Below, piece after piece: positions 4,638-52,090 of a stretch of DNA of 60,079 bases. The stretch comes from Pseudomonadota bacterium (lineage in GTDB: Bacteria > Pseudomonadota > Gammaproteobacteria > Steroidobacterales > Steroidobacteraceae): assembly GCA_043746555.1 (NCBI GenBank), contig JAYTQU010000012.1, forward strand, positions 1 to 60,079, read 5' to 3'. A model generated the notes under the pieces. It did not search any database. It was not told the origin of the DNA and was given only the letters and a program-made list of their open reading frames with translations. The position numbers and the translations under genes were made by a program. Each line of letters starts with the position of its first letter. The first letter of the stretch is position 1.

Positions 4638-6008
4638 TTACGCCGCAAGCGGCAATTCGATTTCGACTATCAAACCTTTGTCGGGCGCATTGCGTGCACT
4701 CACGCGACCGCCATAAACATTGACGACACGCGCGGCGATGGTGAGCCCCAGGCCGCCTCCCGTGCTACCGCGATCGTTGGCACCCATCACACGGTGGAAA
4801 GGCTCGAAGATTCTTTCCAACTCGTTTTCAGGTACTCCGCAACCTTGATCGCGGATCGTGACCACCGCCTGTTGCGCTCGCAATTGCAACGCAACATCTA
4901 CTTTGGACGCATGGTCGGTAAACCGAATAGCGTTGCGAATAACATTTTCGATCGCGCTACGCAGCAGTTCATGATTTCCGAGCACCTCTGCTCGAACCAC
5001 CGGCGTGAACTCCACTTTGATATTTTCGGCACGCGCTTCCAAGCGCGCATCGTCCACGACTTCGGACAGTAGATGCCCCAGTTCGATTCGCTGCCGCAAC
5101 CGACTTGGGTCGTCGTTCGTCAAACTCGACAGCCGCAGAATTTGCCCGATTAGATTATCGAGACGCTCGGTCTCGCGTTCCATGCGATCCATTTCGCGAG
5201 CGATGTCGGCGCCGTCGCGACGCGCCAAACTCAAGGCAACCCGCAATCGCGCGAGCGGCGAACGCAATTCGTGCGACACGTAGCGCAACAATGTTTCCTT
5301 TGCGGCAAGCAATTGTCGCAAGCGTTCCGCCATTTGGTCGAAATCGCGGGCCAACACGCCGAGTTCGTCTCTACGTTTTGCGACTTCCGGCGCGGCACGT
5401 GTATCGAGATGACCGGCCGCGAGCGCGCGAGTGCTCGCCTGTAACGAGGTGACTGGACGACTCAGGTAACGAGCCAACCACCAGCACGCCAACGCGCTAA
5501 CCCCCGATGCAATCAACAACAGAATCAAGCCCGCTCCGGGCCCGCCCAAAATATCGATCGGCGACCAACCGAGATAGGCGAAGAAAAACGTGTACACCGC
5601 GCCATCCACACCGACGATCTGCGGCGTTGCACGCAGCGGATCGGGGATCAGCGGCGGCGGATTACCGTCGGCGTCAGCGAGAAATCCCAGCGCGCCCATG
5701 CGACGAACGCGCCGCGCGATCCGCTCCGTGAGCGGACGATGCAAAATATCCGCGCCATGCATATCGATTATGTACGTGCGCATTCCCGTTTCGTTCTTCC
5801 ACACTTGTCGCGTCCAGTCTTGTAGCGCCGGTAGTCCGCCCTTCTTTAGCGATATCAGCGCATTGTCGGCAACGTCGCTCGCTTCGATATTTTGAATAGT
5901 ACCGGTGCGCTGCCAAGCGACGAATGCCGTGAGCACACTCCCGGCGACGACAATCAATCCCATCGCAAACCAAAACGATAAAAAGATTCGGAGGAAGAGC
6001 GAGTTCAT
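4638..6008 (-). CDS. cpxA: Two-component sensor histidine kinase (CpxA-like: 2 TM, HAMP, HisKA, HATPase_c)
   Basis: 456 aa. H-box is YVSHELRSPLARL; N/G boxes are NVIRNAIRF, DQGCGVP and GGGLGLTIA. It lies 27 nt downstream of the CpxR-like regulator. Confidence 0.8.
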   Translation of the reverse strand: MNSLFLRIFLSFWFAMGLIVVAGSVLTAFVAWQRTGTIQNIEASDVADNALISLKKGGLPALQDWTRQVWKNETGMRTYIIDMHGADILHRPLTERIARRVRRMGALGFLADADGNPPPLIPDPLRATPQIVGVDGAVYTFFFAYLGWSPIDILGGPGAGLILLLIASGVSALACWWLARYLSRPVTSLQASTRALAAGHLDTRAAPEVAKRRDELGVLARDFDQMAERLRQLLAAKETLLRYVSHELRSPLARLRVALSLARRDGADIAREMDRMERETERLDNLIGQILRLSSLTNDDPSRLRQRIELGHLLSEVVDDARLEARAENIKVEFTPVVRAEVLGNHELLRSAIENVIRNAIRFTDHASKVDVALQLRAQQAVVTIRDQGCGVPENELERIFEPFHRVMGANDRGSTGGGLGLTIAARVVNVYGGRVSARNAPDKGLIVEIELPLAA

Positions 6009-6035
6009 GGCGAGCGAGTCCGTTATCGAACGAAA

Positions 6036-6833
6036 CTAACTGGGAGTCGAATCGTTCGAGTCGGTTGACGGCGCGTTAGAAGCACCGTTCGACGAACCAT
6101 CCGGCGCTGCGTCGGACCGAGTTTCAGCATGCGCCGCCAGCACATATCCTGCGCCGCGAATGCTGCGGATTTCAGGCAGGCCGGACTGCCCGAGTCCCAA
6201 CTTGCGACGCAGATTGCTCACGTGAGTGTCGATGCTGCGATCGTACGGCGTGAGTTTTCTACCCAGCACTCGCTCGGTCAAACTCTCGCGCGACTGAACC
6301 TGTCCGGCCGAGCGCATCAACAATTCGAGCACGCGAAATTCCGTGCCCGTTAGGCGCACTGCTTTGCCCAACAAAGTAACTTCCAACGTCGCCGGATCGA
6401 GCCAAATCGGACCGACCGTCACCGGCGCGGCCGGAGCTTCGCTGTCGCGCGAAGAGAATCTTCGTAACACCGCGCGGGTTCGAGCCACTAATTCGCGCGG
6501 ATTAAAAGGCTTGGCCAAATAATCGTCGGCGCCTAATTCCAAGCCGACGATGCGATCCACATCCGCGCCATGCGCCGTCAACATCACGACCGGTACGGAC
6601 AGCGTGCGCCGCAATCGTCGCAACACATCGAAACCGTTCAATGACGGCAACATCACATCGAGAATTACTAGGTCGTAGGTTTCGGTGGCCAACTTGTCGA
6701 GCGCCTCCAAGCCGTCGCGTGCGATCGTGACCCGAAAGCCCTCGCCGCCGAGATATTCATTGAGCATTTGACCCAGCTCGCGGTCGTCATCCACGAGCAA
6801 AAGCGAAGGCATGTTGGCGCGGTCGGCTTGCAT
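6036..6833 (-). CDS. cpxR: OmpR-family response regulator, CpxR-like, with a Ser/Asp-rich C-terminal tail
   Basis: LLLVDDDRELGQML and GLELGADDYLAKPFNPRELVARTRAVLRR closely follow the E. coli CpxR pattern, and a winged-helix C-terminus is present. An alternative start at 6812 (MPSLLLVDDD) is equally plausible. Confidence 0.8.
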   Translation of the reverse strand: MQADRANMPSLLLVDDDRELGQMLNEYLGGEGFRVTIARDGLEALDKLATETYDLVILDVMLPSLNGFDVLRRLRRTLSVPVVMLTAHGADVDRIVGLELGADDYLAKPFNPRELVARTRAVLRRFSSRDSEAPAAPVTVGPIWLDPATLEVTLLGKAVRLTGTEFRVLELLMRSAGQVQSRESLTERVLGRKLTPYDRSIDTHVSNLRRKLGLGQSGLPEIRSIRGAGYVLAAHAETRSDAAPDGSSNGASNAPSTDSNDSTPS

Positions 6834-10738: not shown

Positions 10739-11344
10739 TCACTGACGCTTCGAGTCAGCCTTGGAATCGGCTTTAGTGTCCGCGGGATTGCCCGTTGCAA
10801 TAAATCTACCCAGACGCTGCATTTGCGTGACTAAGTCGCCGTCTACCAGTAGCGCCCATTCCGTCAATGGTCGATCGGCATAGCCACCGGCGGTATAAGT
10901 CATCGTGATTTTCGATCCGCCGCCGGACACTTCGATTGTCCAGGTCAAACTCCCAGTGATGGCGAATTCCTGCAACCGACCCAATGCGCCCCGCAACCGA
11001 AGCGTCTTAGGAGGTTGGGCGTAAATGACGATCATGTGCTGCGCACCCGCATACATGCCCAGCTTTTCGCAAAGACAACCGCCCACAAATGGATCCAGCG
11101 TCATGTTGCGAGCGTCGCCGGAAAAGGTGTGCTCGGGGTCCCACCAGCGGCCAACGTCCGCGAGCGCGCTCCACGCAGCGGGCGGCGGCATAGGAACATT
11201 CACGCTGTGTGTGACCGTGAAGCCGACATCGGATGAGCGCACTACCTCGGCGAACACCGGCGAGCAGAGCGCGGACGCGCCAACACATAGTGTGAGGAAG
11301 GTGAACAATTGAACAGCGAGAGAACGCAACTTGACGATCTTCAT
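10739..11344 (-). CDS. SRPBCC (START/AHSA1-like) domain protein with a signal peptide
   Basis: 201 aa. Has an N-terminal signal sequence, and the sequence GFTVTHSVNVPMPPPAAWSALADVGRWWDPEHTF is typical of the SRPBCC superfamily. Confidence 0.6.
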   Translation of the reverse strand: MKIVKLRSLAVQLFTFLTLCVGASALCSPVFAEVVRSSDVGFTVTHSVNVPMPPPAAWSALADVGRWWDPEHTFSGDARNMTLDPFVGGCLCEKLGMYAGAQHMIVIYAQPPKTLRLRGALGRLQEFAITGSLTWTIEVSGGGSKITMTYTAGGYADRPLTEWALLVDGDLVTQMQRLGRFIATGNPADTKADSKADSKRQ

Positions 11345-11454
11345 ACACCCTCCGTCTTCGCAACCTTACTTGTACCGGCAAAGCTCAAACGCCAACGCGC
11401 ATACTAACAGGACTAGAATGTGGCGATTCACGCTAGCGATACGAGGGCTCGAAC

Positions 11455-43718: not shown

Positions 43719-43894
43719 CAGCCTTCCATTCGTCCAAACCGACCTCCAATCGGAACTCGCCATAGTTCCCGCCGCGAATGTGCGCTGCGTCTCACTTCCT
43801 CAAAGAGCACATCATTACAGTGTCGAATTGCTAGCTTGGCGGTTTCTATAACCTAATGCCCAGCCGATGCAACGAGGTGTTGGAGAGTGAGTGG

Positions 43895-46006
43895 ATGAGT
43901 ACGATTCTGATCGCCTACGAACGCGAGATGGAACAAAACGCGCTGGAGAAGCTGCTCGCCGAGCGCGGCCATAAGGTTATTCGTTCCAACAATGGCGTCG
44001 ATGCATTGGAAGCCGCGCGACGCGAATCGCCCAATCTCATTATTAGCGATATTTCTCTGCCGAAGATGGACGGCTTCTCGCTGTGCAAGAAGTGGAAACA
44101 GGATGAGCATCTGCAAGCCGTGCCGTTCATGTTCTACACGCGCCGCCACAACGACCCCAAGTACGAACGCTTCGCTTTGGAATTAGGCGTTGATCGCTTT
44201 ATCGAACGTACCACCGATCACACCGCGTTTCTCAATGCACTCGATGGCGTGCTGGCCGATGGCGCTTTCGCACGTAAAGCGGACACAATGCGCCTACAAG
44301 CGCTGACCACCGGAGCGTTCTTAACAACCGGCAGGCATTCGAGCACGCAGTCGCAGCCGGCAACCACGATTGTGAATACGACGGTGCAACGGGTAAATGG
44401 CGCCGACAGCGCTGTCGCCAACAACGAAGATCGGAGTTTGGCGCGCGAGGCGCGTTTGCTTGTCCGAGTTGCCGAGCTAGATGCGGAAAACAAGCAACTG
44501 CAAACCGGCGAGCATCGATTACGCGAGTCGCTCGATACTCAAATGCGCACTGCTGCGCATATCACCGATACCTACGGTGCGTTACAGGTTGCCGCGGCCG
44601 ACGGCTTTTGGTTGCTCGACGAAGACGATCGTATTCGCGACACCAATCAAGCGTATTGTCGGCTGTCGGACTACGGCAAAGATGAACTCGTCAAGTTGAA
44701 GGCATCCGATTTAGATACTCGCTGGCGCGACGATGCGACGACACATTTGGAAGTGCTGCGCGATGAAGGACAAATTCGGTATCAAACACAGCATCGTCGC
44801 AAGGACGGGTCGCTATTCGATGTTGAATTGAGCGTCGGCTCGCTTACGGGAACGCAAGCGCGTCGCATCGTCATTATTCGCGACGTTTCGGCGCGAGTTC
44901 GACGCAACGAAGTCACTCGCCGCCTTGAGCGCGCCAAAGATGCGGCATTGGAAATCTTCGCCGGCGCCGAATCGTTGGATGAATCCGGTCTCTCGCGTCG
45001 GGCCACTGAGTTGGCCGCCTCGCTCACCGAAAGTCCGCTGGCATATCTGTGCCTATTCGACATCAAGCATGAAGTAGCCCTTCTAACGGCCATGTTCGAT
45101 TCGAGTAGCAACACCGCGAGCGCAATAAGCGGCGATCAACGAACGCTACCGATTGTCGGCCCGTGGATAGACTGCGCGCGCGCGCTCAAGCCGCAGTTGA
45201 TTGAAGATATGACGCGGATCGGTCGCGCATCGATTTTGCCGGAACAACAGCGAGCGATATTCATGCCGGTCGCGATCGGCGATGGCATTGTGGCGATCAT
45301 CGCCGTGGCGAATCGACGTGTTGCGTATATAGAGAACGACTGCGCATCGTTGGCACCGCTAGTCAACGCCTGCGGCACGGCGCTGCGTTCGAAGAGCGCG
45401 CATATCCAAACTCTAATGTCGTCGCAGCGCGCCGAAGTTGCCTTGCAAGGCACCATCGAATCCATTAGCCGCTTGATCGAACGCCATGATCCGCATGCGA
45501 GCGGCAGTGCGCGACGCGTCGCCGCGCTGTCCGTTGCGATGGCTAGAGAACTTGGTTTATCTCAACGCGAACAAAATACCTTGCGCACGGCCGCGCTATT
45601 GCATCGCGTCGGCAGCATCGCCATTCCATCCGCACTACTGAATAGGCCGGGCGAACTTTCGCCGGTCGAATTGGCGCTGGTGCGCACTCATGTAGAAGAA
45701 AGTCACAGAATACTGTCGGAAATCGAATTCGGTGCGCCGGTCGCGGAAATCGTTTATCAACATCAAGAACGTTTGGACGGCAGCGGCTATCCGCGCGGTT
45801 TGAGTGGCGATCGAATTTTGTTCGAAGCTCGCGTTCTTGCCATTGCGGTCGCGGTTGTCGCGCCGTCGGGCAAACCGGGATCGGCGATGACCATCGCCGC
45901 CGCACTGACCGAACTCGAGAGTGGTGTGAATATCCTCTACGACGCGAAAGCAGTCGGCGCTTGCGTGCGGCTTTTCCGCGAACAGGGATTCTCGCTTCCC
46001 CTATAA
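43895..46006 (+). CDS. Response regulator with REC-PAS-GAF-like-HD-GYP architecture (HD-GYP apparently degenerate)
   Basis: REC has LIISDISLPKMDG. PAS has DGFWLLDEDDRIRDTN..YQTQHRRKDGSLFDVELSV. The C-terminus has LHRVGSIAIPSALLNRPGELS..HVEES..QHQERLDGSGYPRGL. The start at 43895 has GGAGAG upstream. Confidence 0.8.
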   Translation: MSTILIAYEREMEQNALEKLLAERGHKVIRSNNGVDALEAARRESPNLIISDISLPKMDGFSLCKKWKQDEHLQAVPFMFYTRRHNDPKYERFALELGVDRFIERTTDHTAFLNALDGVLADGAFARKADTMRLQALTTGAFLTTGRHSSTQSQPATTIVNTTVQRVNGADSAVANNEDRSLAREARLLVRVAELDAENKQLQTGEHRLRESLDTQMRTAAHITDTYGALQVAAADGFWLLDEDDRIRDTNQAYCRLSDYGKDELVKLKASDLDTRWRDDATTHLEVLRDEGQIRYQTQHRRKDGSLFDVELSVGSLTGTQARRIVIIRDVSARVRRNEVTRRLERAKDAALEIFAGAESLDESGLSRRATELAASLTESPLAYLCLFDIKHEVALLTAMFDSSSNTASAISGDQRTLPIVGPWIDCARALKPQLIEDMTRIGRASILPEQQRAIFMPVAIGDGIVAIIAVANRRVAYIENDCASLAPLVNACGTALRSKSAHIQTLMSSQRAEVALQGTIESISRLIERHDPHASGSARRVAALSVAMARELGLSQREQNTLRTAALLHRVGSIAIPSALLNRPGELSPVELALVRTHVEESHRILSEIEFGAPVAEIVYQHQERLDGSGYPRGLSGDRILFEARVLAIAVAVVAPSGKPGSAMTIAAALTELESGVNILYDAKAVGACVRLFREQGFSLPL

Positions 46007-47678: not shown

Positions 47679-47714
47679 AAAAATGCAAACCCCGCGGCTC
47701 TTGCGAGACGCGGG
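47679..47714 (-). terminator. Rho-independent terminator ending the kinase-CheY-CheX operon
   Basis: On the minus strand: CCCGCG-T-CTC-GCAA-GAG-C-CGCGGG followed by GTTTGCATTTTTG. It lies 30 nt after the CheX-like stop. Confidence 0.65.
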
Positions 47715-47744
47715 ATCGTTAAGGGCGGATACTAACGATGAAAT

Positions 47745-48191
47745 CTATTCGAGGCAGACGACCAACTGCGCGGAGTGACTGCGCCAGTTGATGGGGATCA
47801 CGAAGGCACGCAGATTTTCCGGCGGCGTCACTTTCTCGGGTTCGCCGGCAACGATTTGCGGCACCGAAATCATAAAGTCCTTGCCGAAATCCTTGCGTGC
47901 ATTGCCGGAGATCGTGTTGGCGACTTCGCCAACCAAGTCGCACATGTTCTCTTGCGTCAGCTCGGTTTCACCCATGCGCATCAGCATGACGGTGAGCATG
48001 GGACGCGACGCCGTGAAGTAAACGATGCCGCGACGCTTGCCCGCAATACTGATCACGCCGGTGAACTCCTGTACCGACGGCTTGCCGTCCTGAACGATAT
48101 AAGGCGATCCCACCGATGCCGGTTGGTTGGCAGCGGCCTCGAAGTAGTGCGTCGTACCTTCGACGAACGTTTCGAGTTCAACTTTCGTCAT
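47745..48191 (-). CDS. CheX-family protein (CheY-P phosphatase-like)
   Basis: 148 aa from the ATG at 48191 (ATGA overlap with the upstream stop). FTGVISIAGKRRGIVYFTAS..LVGEVANTISGNARK is the CheX/CheC-like signature region. Confidence 0.7.
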   Translation of the reverse strand: MTKVELETFVEGTTHYFEAAANQPASVGSPYIVQDGKPSVQEFTGVISIAGKRRGIVYFTASRPMLTVMLMRMGETELTQENMCDLVGEVANTISGNARKDFGKDFMISVPQIVAGEPEKVTPPENLRAFVIPINWRSHSAQLVVCLE

Positions 48192-48601
48192 GGGGCACCC
48201 CGCAACAATTCGTCGATCGCATCGGTCAATTGACGATCGGTGAACGGCTTGCAAAGAAAGCCATTCGCGCCGCGTTTCAACCCTTCGATGGCCGTCGCCT
48301 TATCGGACAACGCCGAGATGATCAGAATAAGCACGTCGGACTTGATCGCGATGAGCTTTTCAATGCACTCGATACCATCCATTTCGGGCATCGTAATGTC
48401 CATCGTGACCACATCGCAAGGATCTTTGCGAAACGCCTCGACCGCCAGGCGGCCGTTGGAAGCAGTGGCGACCACTTGTAAGCGCTCAATCTTCAACTCG
48501 CGTTCGATCTTGCGACGAATGATGTTCGAGTCGTCGCAGATTAGTAACTTGAGTTTGCCGGCCGATAGTTGCTGTTTGGCCTGGGCAGTTGCAGTTGCCA
48601 T
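48188..48601 (-). CDS. Single-domain CheY-like response regulator
   Basis: 137 aa. LLICDDS, VVTMDITMPEMDG, IISALS and FLCKPF show all canonical phospho-acceptor pocket residues. There is no output domain. Confidence 0.85.
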   Translation of the reverse strand: MATATAQAKQQLSAGKLKLLICDDSNIIRRKIERELKIERLQVVATASNGRLAVEAFRKDPCDVVTMDITMPEMDGIECIEKLIAIKSDVLILIISALSDKATAIEGLKRGANGFLCKPFTDRQLTDAIDELLRGAP

Positions 48602-48657
48602 TGGTATCCCTCGTCTATGAATTCAAATATAGATTAAAATTTTGAACTGGGCTTGAA

Positions 48658-50898
48658 TCAGGCCGCAACAGCTCGCGCCGCGGCGGGCAACCAAATCTTG
48701 AACTTCGCAAAGCGACCGCCTGCCGAGGCCAGTCCGATACGACCGCCCATCTCGGCGACCAATACTCGCACGAGGTCCATGCCCGCGCCGCGACCCGCAT
48801 CGGTCGTGACCTCTTCCGACGTCGAGAATCCCGGTCGGAAAATCAAAGCCATCGCTTGCCGCGCATCGAGCAACGCTGCCTGAGCCGGGGTGATCAAGCC
48901 GCGCTCGATCGCCACTTCCTTGATGCGATCGAGTTGTAATCCGCGACCGTCGTCGCGCACCACCAATTCGTAACCCTCGCTGCCGCGATCGACAAAGTCG
49001 ATATTCAAAACGCCGGACTCGGGCTTTTGCATCATGAGGCGATCTTGCGGTAATTCGATGCCGTGTACAACCGAGTTGCGCACAAGCTGAATCGTAATGT
49101 CCTTTACCGCGCGACGATAGTTCTCGGGCACCCGATCCAAGCCATGGAATTTTAAAGCGACCCGCTTGTTCTGCGCTTCGGAGACCCGCTTGGCGAGTTT
49201 GTCGAGGGTCGATTCCAAGGCTGACGCTGCAGCGCCATCCTTGTTCTTCGACAGCAGACCCGTGCTCTCCAGCGAATCGGTGTTGCCTTGACCGGTGAGC
49301 CACTCGCCCACCTTCTTGTCGGTGTCGGCATTAGTGGGCGCGCTGACGCGACGACTCGCAATCGCGTGATGCAGATCGACCAAGCGACCCAACATTTCGC
49401 GCACTTGCGCCAAGTGATTGAACAAGTCGTCTAGTTTGACAACCAGCGGTAGGAAATCCGAACCCGACAGATTCTGCCGAGACTTAAGATCGTTGAGCGA
49501 TTCTTCGAAGGTATGGGCCCGCTGTTCGACCGTCTTGAGGCCGAGCGCGGCCGCTTCGCCTTTCACTGCATGCACTTGTCGATAGATGCTGTCGATCTTG
49601 GTACGGAACGCCGCCTCTTCGCGAGCCGGTTCCTTCAAGATCGAGTTCACCATCTTCAACGACACTTCGGCGTCGGTGAGGAAGCCGGTCAAGCTTTCCG
49701 GATCGACGTGGAGAATGCGGAGCAACATATCGAGCTGCTGTTGCGCCTTCTCTTGCGATTCTTGCAATTCGCGCGATAGCAACACGCGCTTGGTGCAATC
49801 GTTCACCGTCACCAGCAAATGCGACATGGTGCCTTCGGCCGCTTTTACGCGGTTGAAGTCGAATTCCATGAAGTGAGTTTCGAATCCACCGGCCGGATTG
49901 TCGAAGTGAACCTCCACTTCGCCAAGCGGATTGATCGACTTGATCAATTTCTCATTGACGCGATCGCCCCAGAGCAAAGACACATAGTCCTGCGCGGTAC
50001 GCAACGTTTTCTCGGGCACAATGCCGCGCAGAAGATCGTCGAAAGTCATATCGTTAAATTGTTCGCGGCGGAAAATTCCGGCCAACGCCATGGACTTTTC
50101 CGTACCGATTTTCATGTTTCGATCGAGCAGGAACAACCCTTCGTTCACCGTGCGCAAGATGTCGGCTGTTTCTTTGCGTGCCCGGTTTGCCGACGCTTCT
50201 TCCTTTTGCAGATTGCGGACGAAAATAAACTGAATCGAGAGCAATACCAACAAAGCGGCGACAATGCCGACGCCCAGCACGATTCGTTGAGTCGTAGCTA
50301 GTTCAGCGCTGGTCGATTCGATATCCGAACTTACCACGCCGAGTTTGCGCGACAGTTCTTCGTGTATCTTGGCGCTCGTTACTTTCAATTCAGCAAGCTG
50401 GCTCTTCAGAGTCTCGCCGCGGGAATTCAACACAACAGCATTGTTGTCATCGCGCGCATACGGCGAACCGGAGAATCGCACCACCGGATCCAGTTTGATT
50501 TTGTAATCGGACCAAAGCTTCGCAGCTGCCGCCAACGCGGCTTTCGCTTCGTCGCCGTTTGGTGAAAGCACGACGGTCTTGCCACCGGCGGTCTTCATCG
50601 AGTCGCCGCTGGTCAGCGCGGCGATGGTCTCGTCCAATGTACGTCGGGCATTACTCAAGTCCTCAAGACTGGACTTGATGTCTTCGCCTTTATCGAGGTG
50701 CGCAGCAAGCGCATGGCCTGCCGCATCGATATAGCCCGGCATCGCGAGCTGCGAGGCAACCTGCTTGATAGCTGGCGCGTTGTTCGCGAAGCGGTTTGCG
50801 CTTGAGAAGTTAAACGCCAGTACGGTGGCGATCAGCAGCACGAAGCCTGCCAGTGCTCTGACAATTCCATTGAACTTGCCGAAATCGAAAATACCCAT
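48658..50898 (-). CDS. Membrane-bound CheA-like histidine kinase: 2-TM periplasmic sensor, unassigned cytoplasmic domain, Hpt (P1), CheA-type ATPase (P4); no P2/P3/P5 evident
   Basis: 746 aa with AGGGGA upstream of the ATG. TM segments at aa ~14-30 and ~205-227. Hpt site is YRQVHAVKGEAAALGL (His443 = nt 49570-49572). P4 boxes are LVRNSVVHGIE, VRDDGRGL and FRPGFSTSEEVTTDAGRGAGMDLV. The protein ends shortly after the ATPase. Confidence 0.8.
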   Translation of the reverse strand: MGIFDFGKFNGIVRALAGFVLLIATVLAFNFSSANRFANNAPAIKQVASQLAMPGYIDAAGHALAAHLDKGEDIKSSLEDLSNARRTLDETIAALTSGDSMKTAGGKTVVLSPNGDEAKAALAAAAKLWSDYKIKLDPVVRFSGSPYARDDNNAVVLNSRGETLKSQLAELKVTSAKIHEELSRKLGVVSSDIESTSAELATTQRIVLGVGIVAALLVLLSIQFIFVRNLQKEEASANRARKETADILRTVNEGLFLLDRNMKIGTEKSMALAGIFRREQFNDMTFDDLLRGIVPEKTLRTAQDYVSLLWGDRVNEKLIKSINPLGEVEVHFDNPAGGFETHFMEFDFNRVKAAEGTMSHLLVTVNDCTKRVLLSRELQESQEKAQQQLDMLLRILHVDPESLTGFLTDAEVSLKMVNSILKEPAREEAAFRTKIDSIYRQVHAVKGEAAALGLKTVEQRAHTFEESLNDLKSRQNLSGSDFLPLVVKLDDLFNHLAQVREMLGRLVDLHHAIASRRVSAPTNADTDKKVGEWLTGQGNTDSLESTGLLSKNKDGAAASALESTLDKLAKRVSEAQNKRVALKFHGLDRVPENYRRAVKDITIQLVRNSVVHGIELPQDRLMMQKPESGVLNIDFVDRGSEGYELVVRDDGRGLQLDRIKEVAIERGLITPAQAALLDARQAMALIFRPGFSTSEEVTTDAGRGAGMDLVRVLVAEMGGRIGLASAGGRFAKFKIWLPAAARAVAA

Positions 50899-51514
50899 TT
50901 ACATTTCCCCTGCAATTCCGGTGGATGGCCTGATGCAATTACCAAATCGCCTCAATTCGCCATACGGTGCTTGCCGATCGTGTGACCTGAGCGCGCGTTT
51001 GCATCGCAGGCTAATGGGGACGATCCAATGACAAGTTACCGCGGTCGTATTTTTGACAATATGTGGGTCTGGTGAGGGCGAACCAGTTCCCGGTTTTCGC
51101 GTTTGGGAATACGCACTAGTTCAAAGAATTGTGTTTGGCTGTATAGACCCGAGCCAGCCAGCCGCCCAATATTCCGCGCTTCTGCGCAATCCGGCTGTGC
51201 CGGCCGCACGACGCATTGCGTTTTCCCGCAACATTGCGCATCTTTAATGCAACCCGCTGACGACCGGCCATTCGTGGCGTATTCACAACGACCTGAAGAT
51301 TCGGGATGTCGCTGTTTGCAGCCAAGCGGCGCGGGAATCGCTTTCCGCGTGGCAGCAATGCGGTATCCACACCACACTCGGTTCGACCATGGTCGTCAGC
51401 GCCGAACCCTGAACGGTCGTAGGGGAATGCAGGCTCGACACCCTCGACGCTCAAGGTCATGATCCGGCGACCTTTCGTAGAGCAGTCACTCGATTCACGT
51501 CTGCGTTAAAGGGC

Positions 51515-51553: not shown

Positions 51554-51616
51554 ATAGAGCATTGCTGAGCGACCCGTTGTGTGCCGGAAGTAGTTGACGA
51601 TTCGAGGACGAAACCT

Positions 51617-52090
51617 ATGACGACAAAAATCGAATTTGCTTCTCATGTTGCCGCCAATCAACTCGGTTCGCTGGAATCGCTTGTGTACTTCAATTCTTGT
51701 CAAAGTCGCGTGAGCGACAGCATTGTCGACGCGGTCGAAAAATTCGGCCCGCTTGAAATCATCGAGAAAGACGAGCGCCTGCGAGTGCGCGTCAGTGGTT
51801 TGGCGGAAGCGCAATCGCTGTTTGCCGTCGAAACGGCATCGGGAAGGCCGGTGGGCATTGCCGTTTACGCGCGTCCGGATCTGCAACACATCACGGTCGT
51901 ACACCTCGGTGTCGCTGCGGAATTCGCCAGTGGCGGTGTGCGAGCACGCGAACAATTGCTGTTGCGGCTGCTGCGGGAACTACGCCGATCGAGTCGGCGT
52001 ATCAAGGGCGTGCGGCATTTCGAGCTGTATTACGGCGGCCGTGCTCGTGCGGCTCAGCGTCCGCAACGACTCGCGTCGGCTTACGCATAA
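51617..52090 (+). CDS. Hypothetical protein (possibly a GNAT-like fold)
   Basis: 157 aa from the ATG at 51617, with GAGGA 9 nt upstream. LFAVETASGRPVGIAVYAR..ITVVHLGVAAEF faintly resembles a GNAT core. The call is not secure. Confidence 0.45.
   Translation: MTTKIEFASHVAANQLGSLESLVYFNSCQSRVSDSIVDAVEKFGPLEIIEKDERLRVRVSGLAEAQSLFAVETASGRPVGIAVYARPDLQHITVVHLGVAAEFASGGVRAREQLLLRLLRELRRSSRRIKGVRHFELYYGGRARAAQRPQRLASAYA

Follow-up and report, generated by a model that had tools for sequence, protein, structure and literature searches.

The three-gene operon

The window analysed here, a stretch of 60,079 nucleotides (nt) from a Steroidobacteraceae bacterium (GenBank assembly GCA_043746555.1, contig JAYTQU010000012.1), encodes on its minus strand a membrane-bound histidine kinase with a CheA-type catalytic core, a single-domain CheY-like receiver and a CheX-type phosphatase. 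A first-pass annotation made from the sequence alone had read this triad as a chemotaxis kinase core wired directly to a transmembrane sensor, bypassing the receptor/CheW array, and both the domain anatomy of the kinase and the conservation of the operon support that proposal. Re-reading of the sequence returned the coordinates and strand it had given for the three genes, the gap of 56 nt between kinase and receiver, and the ATGA overlap between receiver and CheX. The genes and the hairpin that follows them are arranged as listed below, in order of transcription.

48658..50898, minus strand: kinase gene, 746 amino acids (aa), stop codon TGA at 48658-48660
48188..48601, minus strand: CheY-like receiver gene, 137 aa, start codon ATG at 48601
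47745..48191, minus strand: CheX gene, 148 aa, with ATGA overlap with the receiver stop codon
47689..47709, minus strand: terminator-like hairpin with a T-rich tail, located by consensus scan and direct reading of the sequence

The 56-nt spacer between kinase and receiver contains a GAGGG Shine-Dalgarno-like motif ahead of the receiver ATG. The start codon of CheX lies inside the receiver stop (ATGA), through which CheX is translationally coupled to the receiver. A mechanical list of open reading frames (ORFs) also held a 169-aa version of CheX beginning at TTG; this is an over-extension, the true protein being the one of 148 aa. The identities assigned to the two downstream genes in the first-pass annotation were upheld by Pfam, which matched the receiver to Response_reg (2.6e-27) and the third gene to CheX (2.7e-20). 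Key residues of the receiver could be read from its sequence as D23/D24, the phospho-acceptor D68, S96, F115 and K118, and its nearest solved structures are the CheY proteins 4iga and 1tmy (E 2e-21). The CheX protein carries the active-site motif D85-x3-E89-x2-N92; its matches in the PDB (3iic, 3hm4 and 3h2d, at about 5e-8) are CheX/CheC-like, and the active-site motif DLVGEVANTISG is aligned in them.

A terminator had also been placed after CheX. The hairpin with its T-rich tail is present (in the consensus scan a stem of 7 base pairs followed by TTGCATTTTT, 36 nt 3' of the CheX stop), but comparable sites are not enriched over shuffled sequences, so that by itself the hairpin is weak evidence of termination. 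We also considered and rejected as a fourth operon gene an ORF of 114 aa just upstream of the kinase (51116..51460, minus strand). Its Arg-rich product has no Pfam match, and it is annotated as a gene only in two metagenome contigs (L081 and L082 among the related loci described below), with no counterpart in any of the remaining loci; it is probably not a real gene.

Domain anatomy of the kinase

From its N to its C terminus, the kinase consists of the following segments, all encoded on the minus strand.

50800..50865, minus strand: transmembrane helix 1, residues ~12-33, hydrophobic IVRALAGFVLLIATVLAFNFSS, helical in the AlphaFold2 model
50284..50799, minus strand: periplasmic PilJ/NarX-like helical bundle, residues ~34-205
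~50416..50514, minus strand: invariant patch within the bundle, residues 129-161, from a 34-sequence alignment
50218..50283, minus strand: transmembrane helix 2, residues ~206-227, hydrophobic IVLGVGIVAALLVLLSIQFIFV
49795..50217, minus strand: juxtamembrane helix and cytoplasmic PAS fold, residues 228-368, without any Pfam model
49342..49794, minus strand: connector helix and four-helix P1-like Hpt with His443, residues 369-519
49219..49341, minus strand: variable disordered linker at the site of CheA P2 and P3, residues 520-560
48658..49218, minus strand: CheA-type ATPase (P4) and stop codon, residues 561-746

The succession of a transmembrane helix, a PilJ/NarX-type bundle and a second transmembrane helix, as first proposed from the sequence, agrees with the AlphaFold2 bundle and with the PilJ matches of relatives. 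The kinase starts with MGIFDFGKFNGIV, in agreement with MGILDLGRYKGIV at the N terminus of homologues. A full-length AlphaFold2 model was built as a monomer from 34 close homologues, with a predicted local distance difference test (pLDDT) value of 66. In this model the helical bundle between the transmembrane helices is confident; the periplasmic region forms four long helices and two small hairpins at a pLDDT of 75-90, and transmembrane helix 2 sits within a single continuous helix spanning residues 159-252. The window kinase itself matches Pfam PilJ below threshold (residues 64-136, scoring 19.9 bits where the cut-off is 26.6). The assignment is backed by relatives of 30-46% identity, which match PilJ clearly, at up to 1.7e-24. 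Where these relatives read NLAGRQRMLSQ, the window kinase has AIKQVASQLAMP, and both arginines of the P-box are replaced. The periplasmic domain is otherwise variable, but W129, K135, P138, G-S-P-Y 144-147, R160 and G161 are invariant in 34 Steroidobacteraceae-type sequences. Judging from this alignment, the invariant residues between 129 and 161 may mark the ligand site of a P-box-less sensor.

The cytoplasmic region that follows had been called PAS-like by eye. It was modelled poorly in the full-length prediction (residues 250-370, pLDDT 40-55). An AlphaFold2 model of residues 225-520 computed with 64 diverse relatives reached a pLDDT of 93.4 and contains a juxtamembrane helix, a five-stranded alpha/beta PAS fold (residues 254-367), a connector helix and the four-helix Hpt. 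Foldseek searches with this model returned the PAS domains of FixL and Rv1364c as well as LOV domains, with E-values of 1e-6 to 1e-5 and target-normalised TM-scores of up to 0.71, which confirms a PAS fold. The full-length model matched CheA P4 and whole PAS-histidine-kinase structures. The PAS region is almost invariant within the family, and one relative has a weak Pfam match to PAS_4.

For the catalytic half of the protein, Pfam, hhalign, a PDB profile search and AlphaFold2 agree with the earlier description of an Hpt, a low-complexity linker and a CheA-type P4 without P2, P3 or P5. Pfam places the Hpt at residues 405-498 (E 2.9e-6), and its four helices, the last of which covers residues 479-519, were modelled with per-10-residue pLDDT values of about 86-98. 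H443, K446 and G447 of the H-x-x-K-G motif are invariant in a 27-sequence alignment of relatives at 29-63% identity. Pfam found no HisKA family, HAMP or HisKA_3 match in the kinase. The linker (residues 514-556 by pLDDT, all below 50) varies in both sequence and length among homologues over about residues 517-560, the place that P2 and P3 would occupy. The ATPase domain matches HATPase_c at residues 601-740 (E 7e-11). Alignment by hhalign to the P3P4 portion of Thermotoga maritima CheA covered P4 alone (query residues 562-739, 99.9% probability, E 6e-37), with about 30% identity between the two P4 domains. The best PDB match of a profile of 34 homologues was 1b3q (E 2e-29), accompanied by weak Hpt matches. 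Similarly, Foldseek comparison with CheA P4 structures gave target-normalised TM-scores of up to 0.68 with coverage of P4 only, and the NCBIfam CheA models cover only the P4 portion of the kinase. Residues of the N, G1 and G2 boxes (N608, H612-G613, E615, D649-D650-G651, G653, G702, G704 and G706) are invariant in relatives at 29-63% identity.

A hidden P3 or P5 domain, which would have contradicted the proposed architecture, was looked for and was not found. Pfam gave no match to H-kinase_dim or CheW in the kinase; P3 alone, compared with the family profile by hhalign, scored a probability of 0.6%; and P2, P3 and P5 were undetectable by Pfam, profile-profile comparison and structure prediction. 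The kinase ends about 7 residues past the last P4 strand, so P5 is absent. One candidate remnant of P3 was rejected: the PDB profile alignment ran back over T. maritima P3 at residues 510-575, and hhalign shows this stretch to be filler without homology.

Conservation of the triad and its genomic setting

Scanning a single genome of each species yielded 79 loci, almost without exception in Steroidobacteraceae, and their gene context was examined over 10 kb either side. Wherever the sequence extends far enough past the kinase gene (76 loci), the genes for the receiver and CheX come next in every case. Identity across these loci is 60-95% for the receiver, 56-99% for CheX and 40-89% for the kinase, the two small proteins being better conserved than the kinase itself. 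The closest kinase homologues (60-89% identity) are nearly all from Steroidobacteraceae, Steroidobacter and Povalibacter, and in them Pfam finds Hpt and HATPase_c only; a further profile search again gave almost only Steroidobacteraceae. The triad belongs to a conserved block with the gene order polA, engB, cytochrome c4, dsbA, a hypothetical gene and, last, the triad itself. The hypothetical protein, of 157-169 aa and without a Pfam match, is encoded divergently from the kinase at 51581..52090 on the plus strand; 56 of 80 Steroidobacteraceae loci have it in this position, with dsbA on one side and the triad on the other. One metagenome-assembled genome (MAG), MFD00962.bin.2.115, carries two paralogous whole triads (L075 and L077), the kinase of each being about 42% identical to that of the window.

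The family extends well beyond this clade. When 1.84 billion cluster representatives (50% identity clusters) were searched exhaustively with HMMER, 1,424 proteins reached E<=1e-30. Scores within the best 150 are all at least 311 bits, most of these matches being full-length at about 700 aa. Ten of the best relatives were scanned with Pfam and consist of PilJ (in some cases two copies), Hpt and HATPase_c, barring one Bacteroidota Amt fusion; P3 and P5 are absent from all ten. The family spans at least Gammaproteobacteria, Betaproteobacteria and Bacteroidota. In four distant relatives (L083-L086, 29-46% identity) the triad is retained in unrelated gene contexts. Among them, the Bacteroidota metagenome contig L085 (7144..12231) encodes a 1052-aa fusion of Amt, PAS, Hpt and CheA-type ATPase, with the genes in the order receiver, CheX and kinase and, after them, a gene for a class III nucleotide cyclase. 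In L083 a gene for a PilZ-domain protein (11045..11425) stands directly after CheX. In L084 (6560..9088) two genes for REC-Ser/Thr-kinase fusions are found upstream, about 1-3 kb from the kinase gene, with a MiaE gene between.

Relatives only 26-28% identical to the window kinase are encoded on chromids of Burkholderia, Ralstonia and Ideonella. The Ralstonia wenshanensis kinase (L088, 5260..9309) consists of 4HB_MCP, HAMP, a region homologous to the window PAS that has no Pfam PAS match, Hpt and HATPase_c. Downstream are genes for a 238-aa soluble protein with a methyl-accepting chemotaxis protein (MCP) signalling domain, a 177-aa protein and a CheY-like receiver. The 177-aa protein is conserved in this Burkholderiales sub-type (L088, and L087 from Ideonella dechloratans), has no Pfam match and occupies the position of CheX.

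No gene for an MCP, CheW, CheR, CheB or CheD was found by Pfam among the scanned ORFs of the window, consistent with the first-pass annotation, and flagellar and pilus genes were likewise absent from these ORFs. Searches with tblastn for CheW, MCP and P5 were run without SEG masking or composition adjustment. They recovered the soluble MCPs of Ralstonia and Ideonella (E 8e-14 and 3e-9), which served as a positive control; neither the window nor any of the other 84 loci, L087 and L088 set aside, yielded a significant match. Neither pil nor che genes occur in the window or within 10 kb either side of the related loci, the soluble MCP of L087 and L088 aside. The possibility that orthologues are embedded in complete che clusters was thus answered in the negative: the triad stands alone in the 76 Steroidobacteraceae loci and in the four distant ones. 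Elsewhere in the window, an ordinary HAMP-HisKA-HATPase sensor kinase with an OmpR-type regulator (4638..6833, minus strand) is unrelated to the triad.

Class assignment, mechanism and alternative readings

The operon does encode a sensor-fused CheA-type kinase system, but this kind of system has already been described. Adebali et al. are said to have defined, in a genome comparison of 2017, a "class III histidine kinase" (HKIII) that reportedly combines a sensory domain, an Hpt and a CheA-like ATPase and has no dimerisation or CheW domain. Its gene clusters reportedly include a single-domain regulator and CheX and, in many instances, a soluble chemoreceptor. The hosts are said to possess type IV pilus genes and in many cases to lack che genes, and the authors reportedly suggested that the systems act in type IV pilus motility. 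The window kinase has the same make-up of N-terminal sensor, Hpt histidine and CheA-like ATPase, with neither a dimerisation nor a CheW domain, and a single-domain regulator and CheX adjoin it in all of the 76 loci as well as in the four distant relatives. The Burkholderiales members, in Ralstonia and Ideonella, also encode the small soluble MCP-signalling protein that HKIII clusters reportedly include. The Steroidobacteraceae clade differs in having no soluble chemoreceptor gene and a PilJ-type sensor without a P-box. We conclude, with a probability of roughly 0.8, that the triad is an HKIII-type two-component module, which employs CheA catalytic chemistry under its own sensor instead of MCP/CheW arrays. 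The architecture is thus not new at the level of comparative genomics, given the reported 2017 description; no experimentally characterised member was found.

Several points weigh against this assignment. The correspondence with HKIII is drawn from the reported features of that class and one secondary summary: PMC6501615 cites and, in a brief passage, summarises Adebali, Petukh, Reznik, Tishkov, Upadhyay and Zhulin 2017 (J Bacteriol 199:e00218-17). The open-access literature searched contained no other paper citing it and no use of the term HKIII; neither this architecture nor an experimental study of any family member was found there. A CheA-type P4 would have to be switched without the P3 dimerisation domain, and our models are monomers. 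Finally, the absence of cheW and mcp covers the 60-kb window and 10 kb per side of the related loci, and the CheW and P5 queries used in tblastn had no positive control.

Comparison with better-known systems helps to delimit the module. Like FixL, YF1 (LOV-HK) and WalK, the window kinase has the order sensor, PAS, phospho-His helical bundle and ATPase, and Foldseek aligns it with whole PAS-histidine-kinase structures. However, its bundle is a monomeric four-helix Hpt whereas theirs is a dimeric DHp, its ATPase is of the CheA lineage, and a disordered tether of about 40 residues separates Hpt from ATPase. The CheY/CheX pair resembles that of Thermotoga and spirochaetes, with a CheX bearing an E-x2-N active site and a single-domain CheY as its substrate; theirs belongs to complete flagellar chemotaxis, whereas the window pair accompanies a self-sensing kinase with no motor or array genes nearby. 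With CheA the system shares a P1-type Hpt with H-x-x-K-G, a P4 ATPase, a predicted CheY-like phosphotransfer partner and an auxiliary phosphatase in place of a kinase-borne one. It differs in having no P2, P3 or P5, and in carrying, fused to the kinase core, a PAS domain and a periplasmic sensor with its pair of transmembrane helices.

The CheA-type Hpt and ATPase, together with a receiver whose nearest solved relatives are chemotaxis CheYs, could also come from a truncated CheA that works in a chemoreceptor array encoded elsewhere, with CheW and MCPs supplied in trans and CheY signalling to the flagellar motor; the genes known here are those of a 60-kb window. Such a CheA would nevertheless have no P5, the domain through which CheA docks to CheW and receptors, and no P3. 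P1, P3, P4 and P5 were present in every one of 13,673 CheAs surveyed in PMC10782961, with the CheW domain in 100% of them, and CheA is described there as being without a sensor domain. The window kinase lacks two of these four features and is not a CheA. It has a membrane sensor and a PAS domain of its own, and the 10 kb either side of each related locus contain no che gene. The same triad also occurs in a Bacteroidota MAG, in a phylum not known to have flagellar chemotaxis. We regard an array-bound truncated CheA as very improbable. A nitrate/nitrite sensor of the NarX/NarQ/McpN kind with a CheA-type transmitter is comparably remote, despite the homology of the sensor to the PilJ/NarX domain. 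NarX, NarQ and McpN share with it the periplasmic four-helix-bundle family (PF13675), and many relatives of the kinase keep the P-box: the canonical form AG[RK]xR[MLI] occurs in 40 of 117 full-length representative relatives, five of which have two. The published consensus, A-I-N-x-A-G-S-L-R-M-Q-S-Y-R, includes the ligand-binding arginine, and sensors with that arginine mutated, even to lysine, are insensitive to ligand (PMC8199190). In the Steroidobacteraceae clade the P-box arginines are lost (0 of 120 homologues of this type retain the box). The transmitter differs as well, being an Hpt with a CheA-type ATPase versus HAMP, GAF-like, HisKA_3 and HATPase domains in NarX and NarQ; Pfam detects no HAMP, GAF-like or HisKA_3 domain in the window kinase. 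From the loss of these arginines, the ligand of the window kinase is therefore probably not nitrate, and we rejected nitrate sensing.

A further proposal would have the triad feed into the turnover of cyclic di-GMP (c-di-GMP), with phosphate passing from the Hpt or from the CheY-like protein to the REC domain of a nearby HD-GYP protein. The first-pass annotation had named this protein as a speculative second acceptor; it is encoded as follows.

43856..46006, plus strand: REC-PAS-GAF-HD-GYP response regulator (HD_5 6.5e-39; nearest NCBIfam model, NosR-family c-di-GMP phosphodiesterase)

This gene lies 1.7 kb from the triad, and 12 of 80 related loci have a homologue no more than 10 kb away. The gene next to a distant triad encodes a PilZ protein in L083 and a nucleotide cyclase in L085, hinting at cyclic-nucleotide links. 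In the window, however, the HD-GYP gene is on the opposite strand, three ORFs are counted in between, among them those of a GNAT acetyltransferase and a 352-aa hypothetical protein, and the triad's own receiver with CheX is closer. In 68 of the 80 loci no homologue is present within 10 kb, the distance varies where one is, and the receiver and CheX are the only invariant partners. With a homologue nearby in just 12 loci, the idea of this protein as a second acceptor proved weak and HD-GYP coupling was rejected; it seems improbable, if slightly less so than an array-bound CheA or a nitrate sensor.

Returning to the HKIII-type module, its domain anatomy, its catalytic motifs, its lack of P3 and P5 and the conservation of its operon are direct observations. 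For the direction of regulation, the oligomeric state, the ligand and the output, we infer the following scheme. The periplasmic PilJ/NarX-like bundle would bind a ligand, and the signal would pass through transmembrane helix 2 and the juxtamembrane helix to the cytoplasmic PAS domain. The PAS domain would then govern the phosphorylation by P4 of His443 in the adjacent Hpt, from which the phosphoryl group would be transferred to Asp68 of the co-transcribed CheY-like protein. That protein would act on its target through protein-protein contact, and CheX would remove the phosphate, so that the response is quick and can be reversed. Since a kinase built on Hpt and P4 has no DHp, it carries no phosphatase of its own, which would leave removal of the phosphate to CheX; from established two-component biochemistry, the strict linkage of CheX to the kinase makes sense in these terms. 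As to the output, modulation of type IV pilus motility is the only published proposal that we know of, reportedly made in the 2017 paper that PMC6501615 cites.

The Steroidobacteraceae clade is a distinct sub-type and could also have a new periplasmic ligand and an output other than the pilus, for example cyclic-nucleotide effectors. Such a ligand and output are a tentative suggestion and an unlikely one, although less so than any of the alternatives above. The clade is set apart by the loss of the P-box, the absence of a soluble chemoreceptor and a fixed locus beside polA, engB, cytochrome c4 and dsbA, and could therefore sense a new ligand. Were this true, the clade could reveal how a PAS domain switches a CheA-type ATPase that has neither the P3 scaffold nor a receptor array.

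CheA is commonly presented as a sensorless kinase that works only within receptor/CheW arrays. In the triad the same chemistry, an Hpt with P4, a CheY and an external phosphatase, appears in the form of an ordinary membrane sensor kinase. The finding is of value for annotation, where the gene now goes by "CheA", "ATP-binding protein" or "Hpt domain-containing protein". Steroidobacter and Povalibacter, among the cultivable soil genera that carry this compact three-gene system, make the class biochemically testable.

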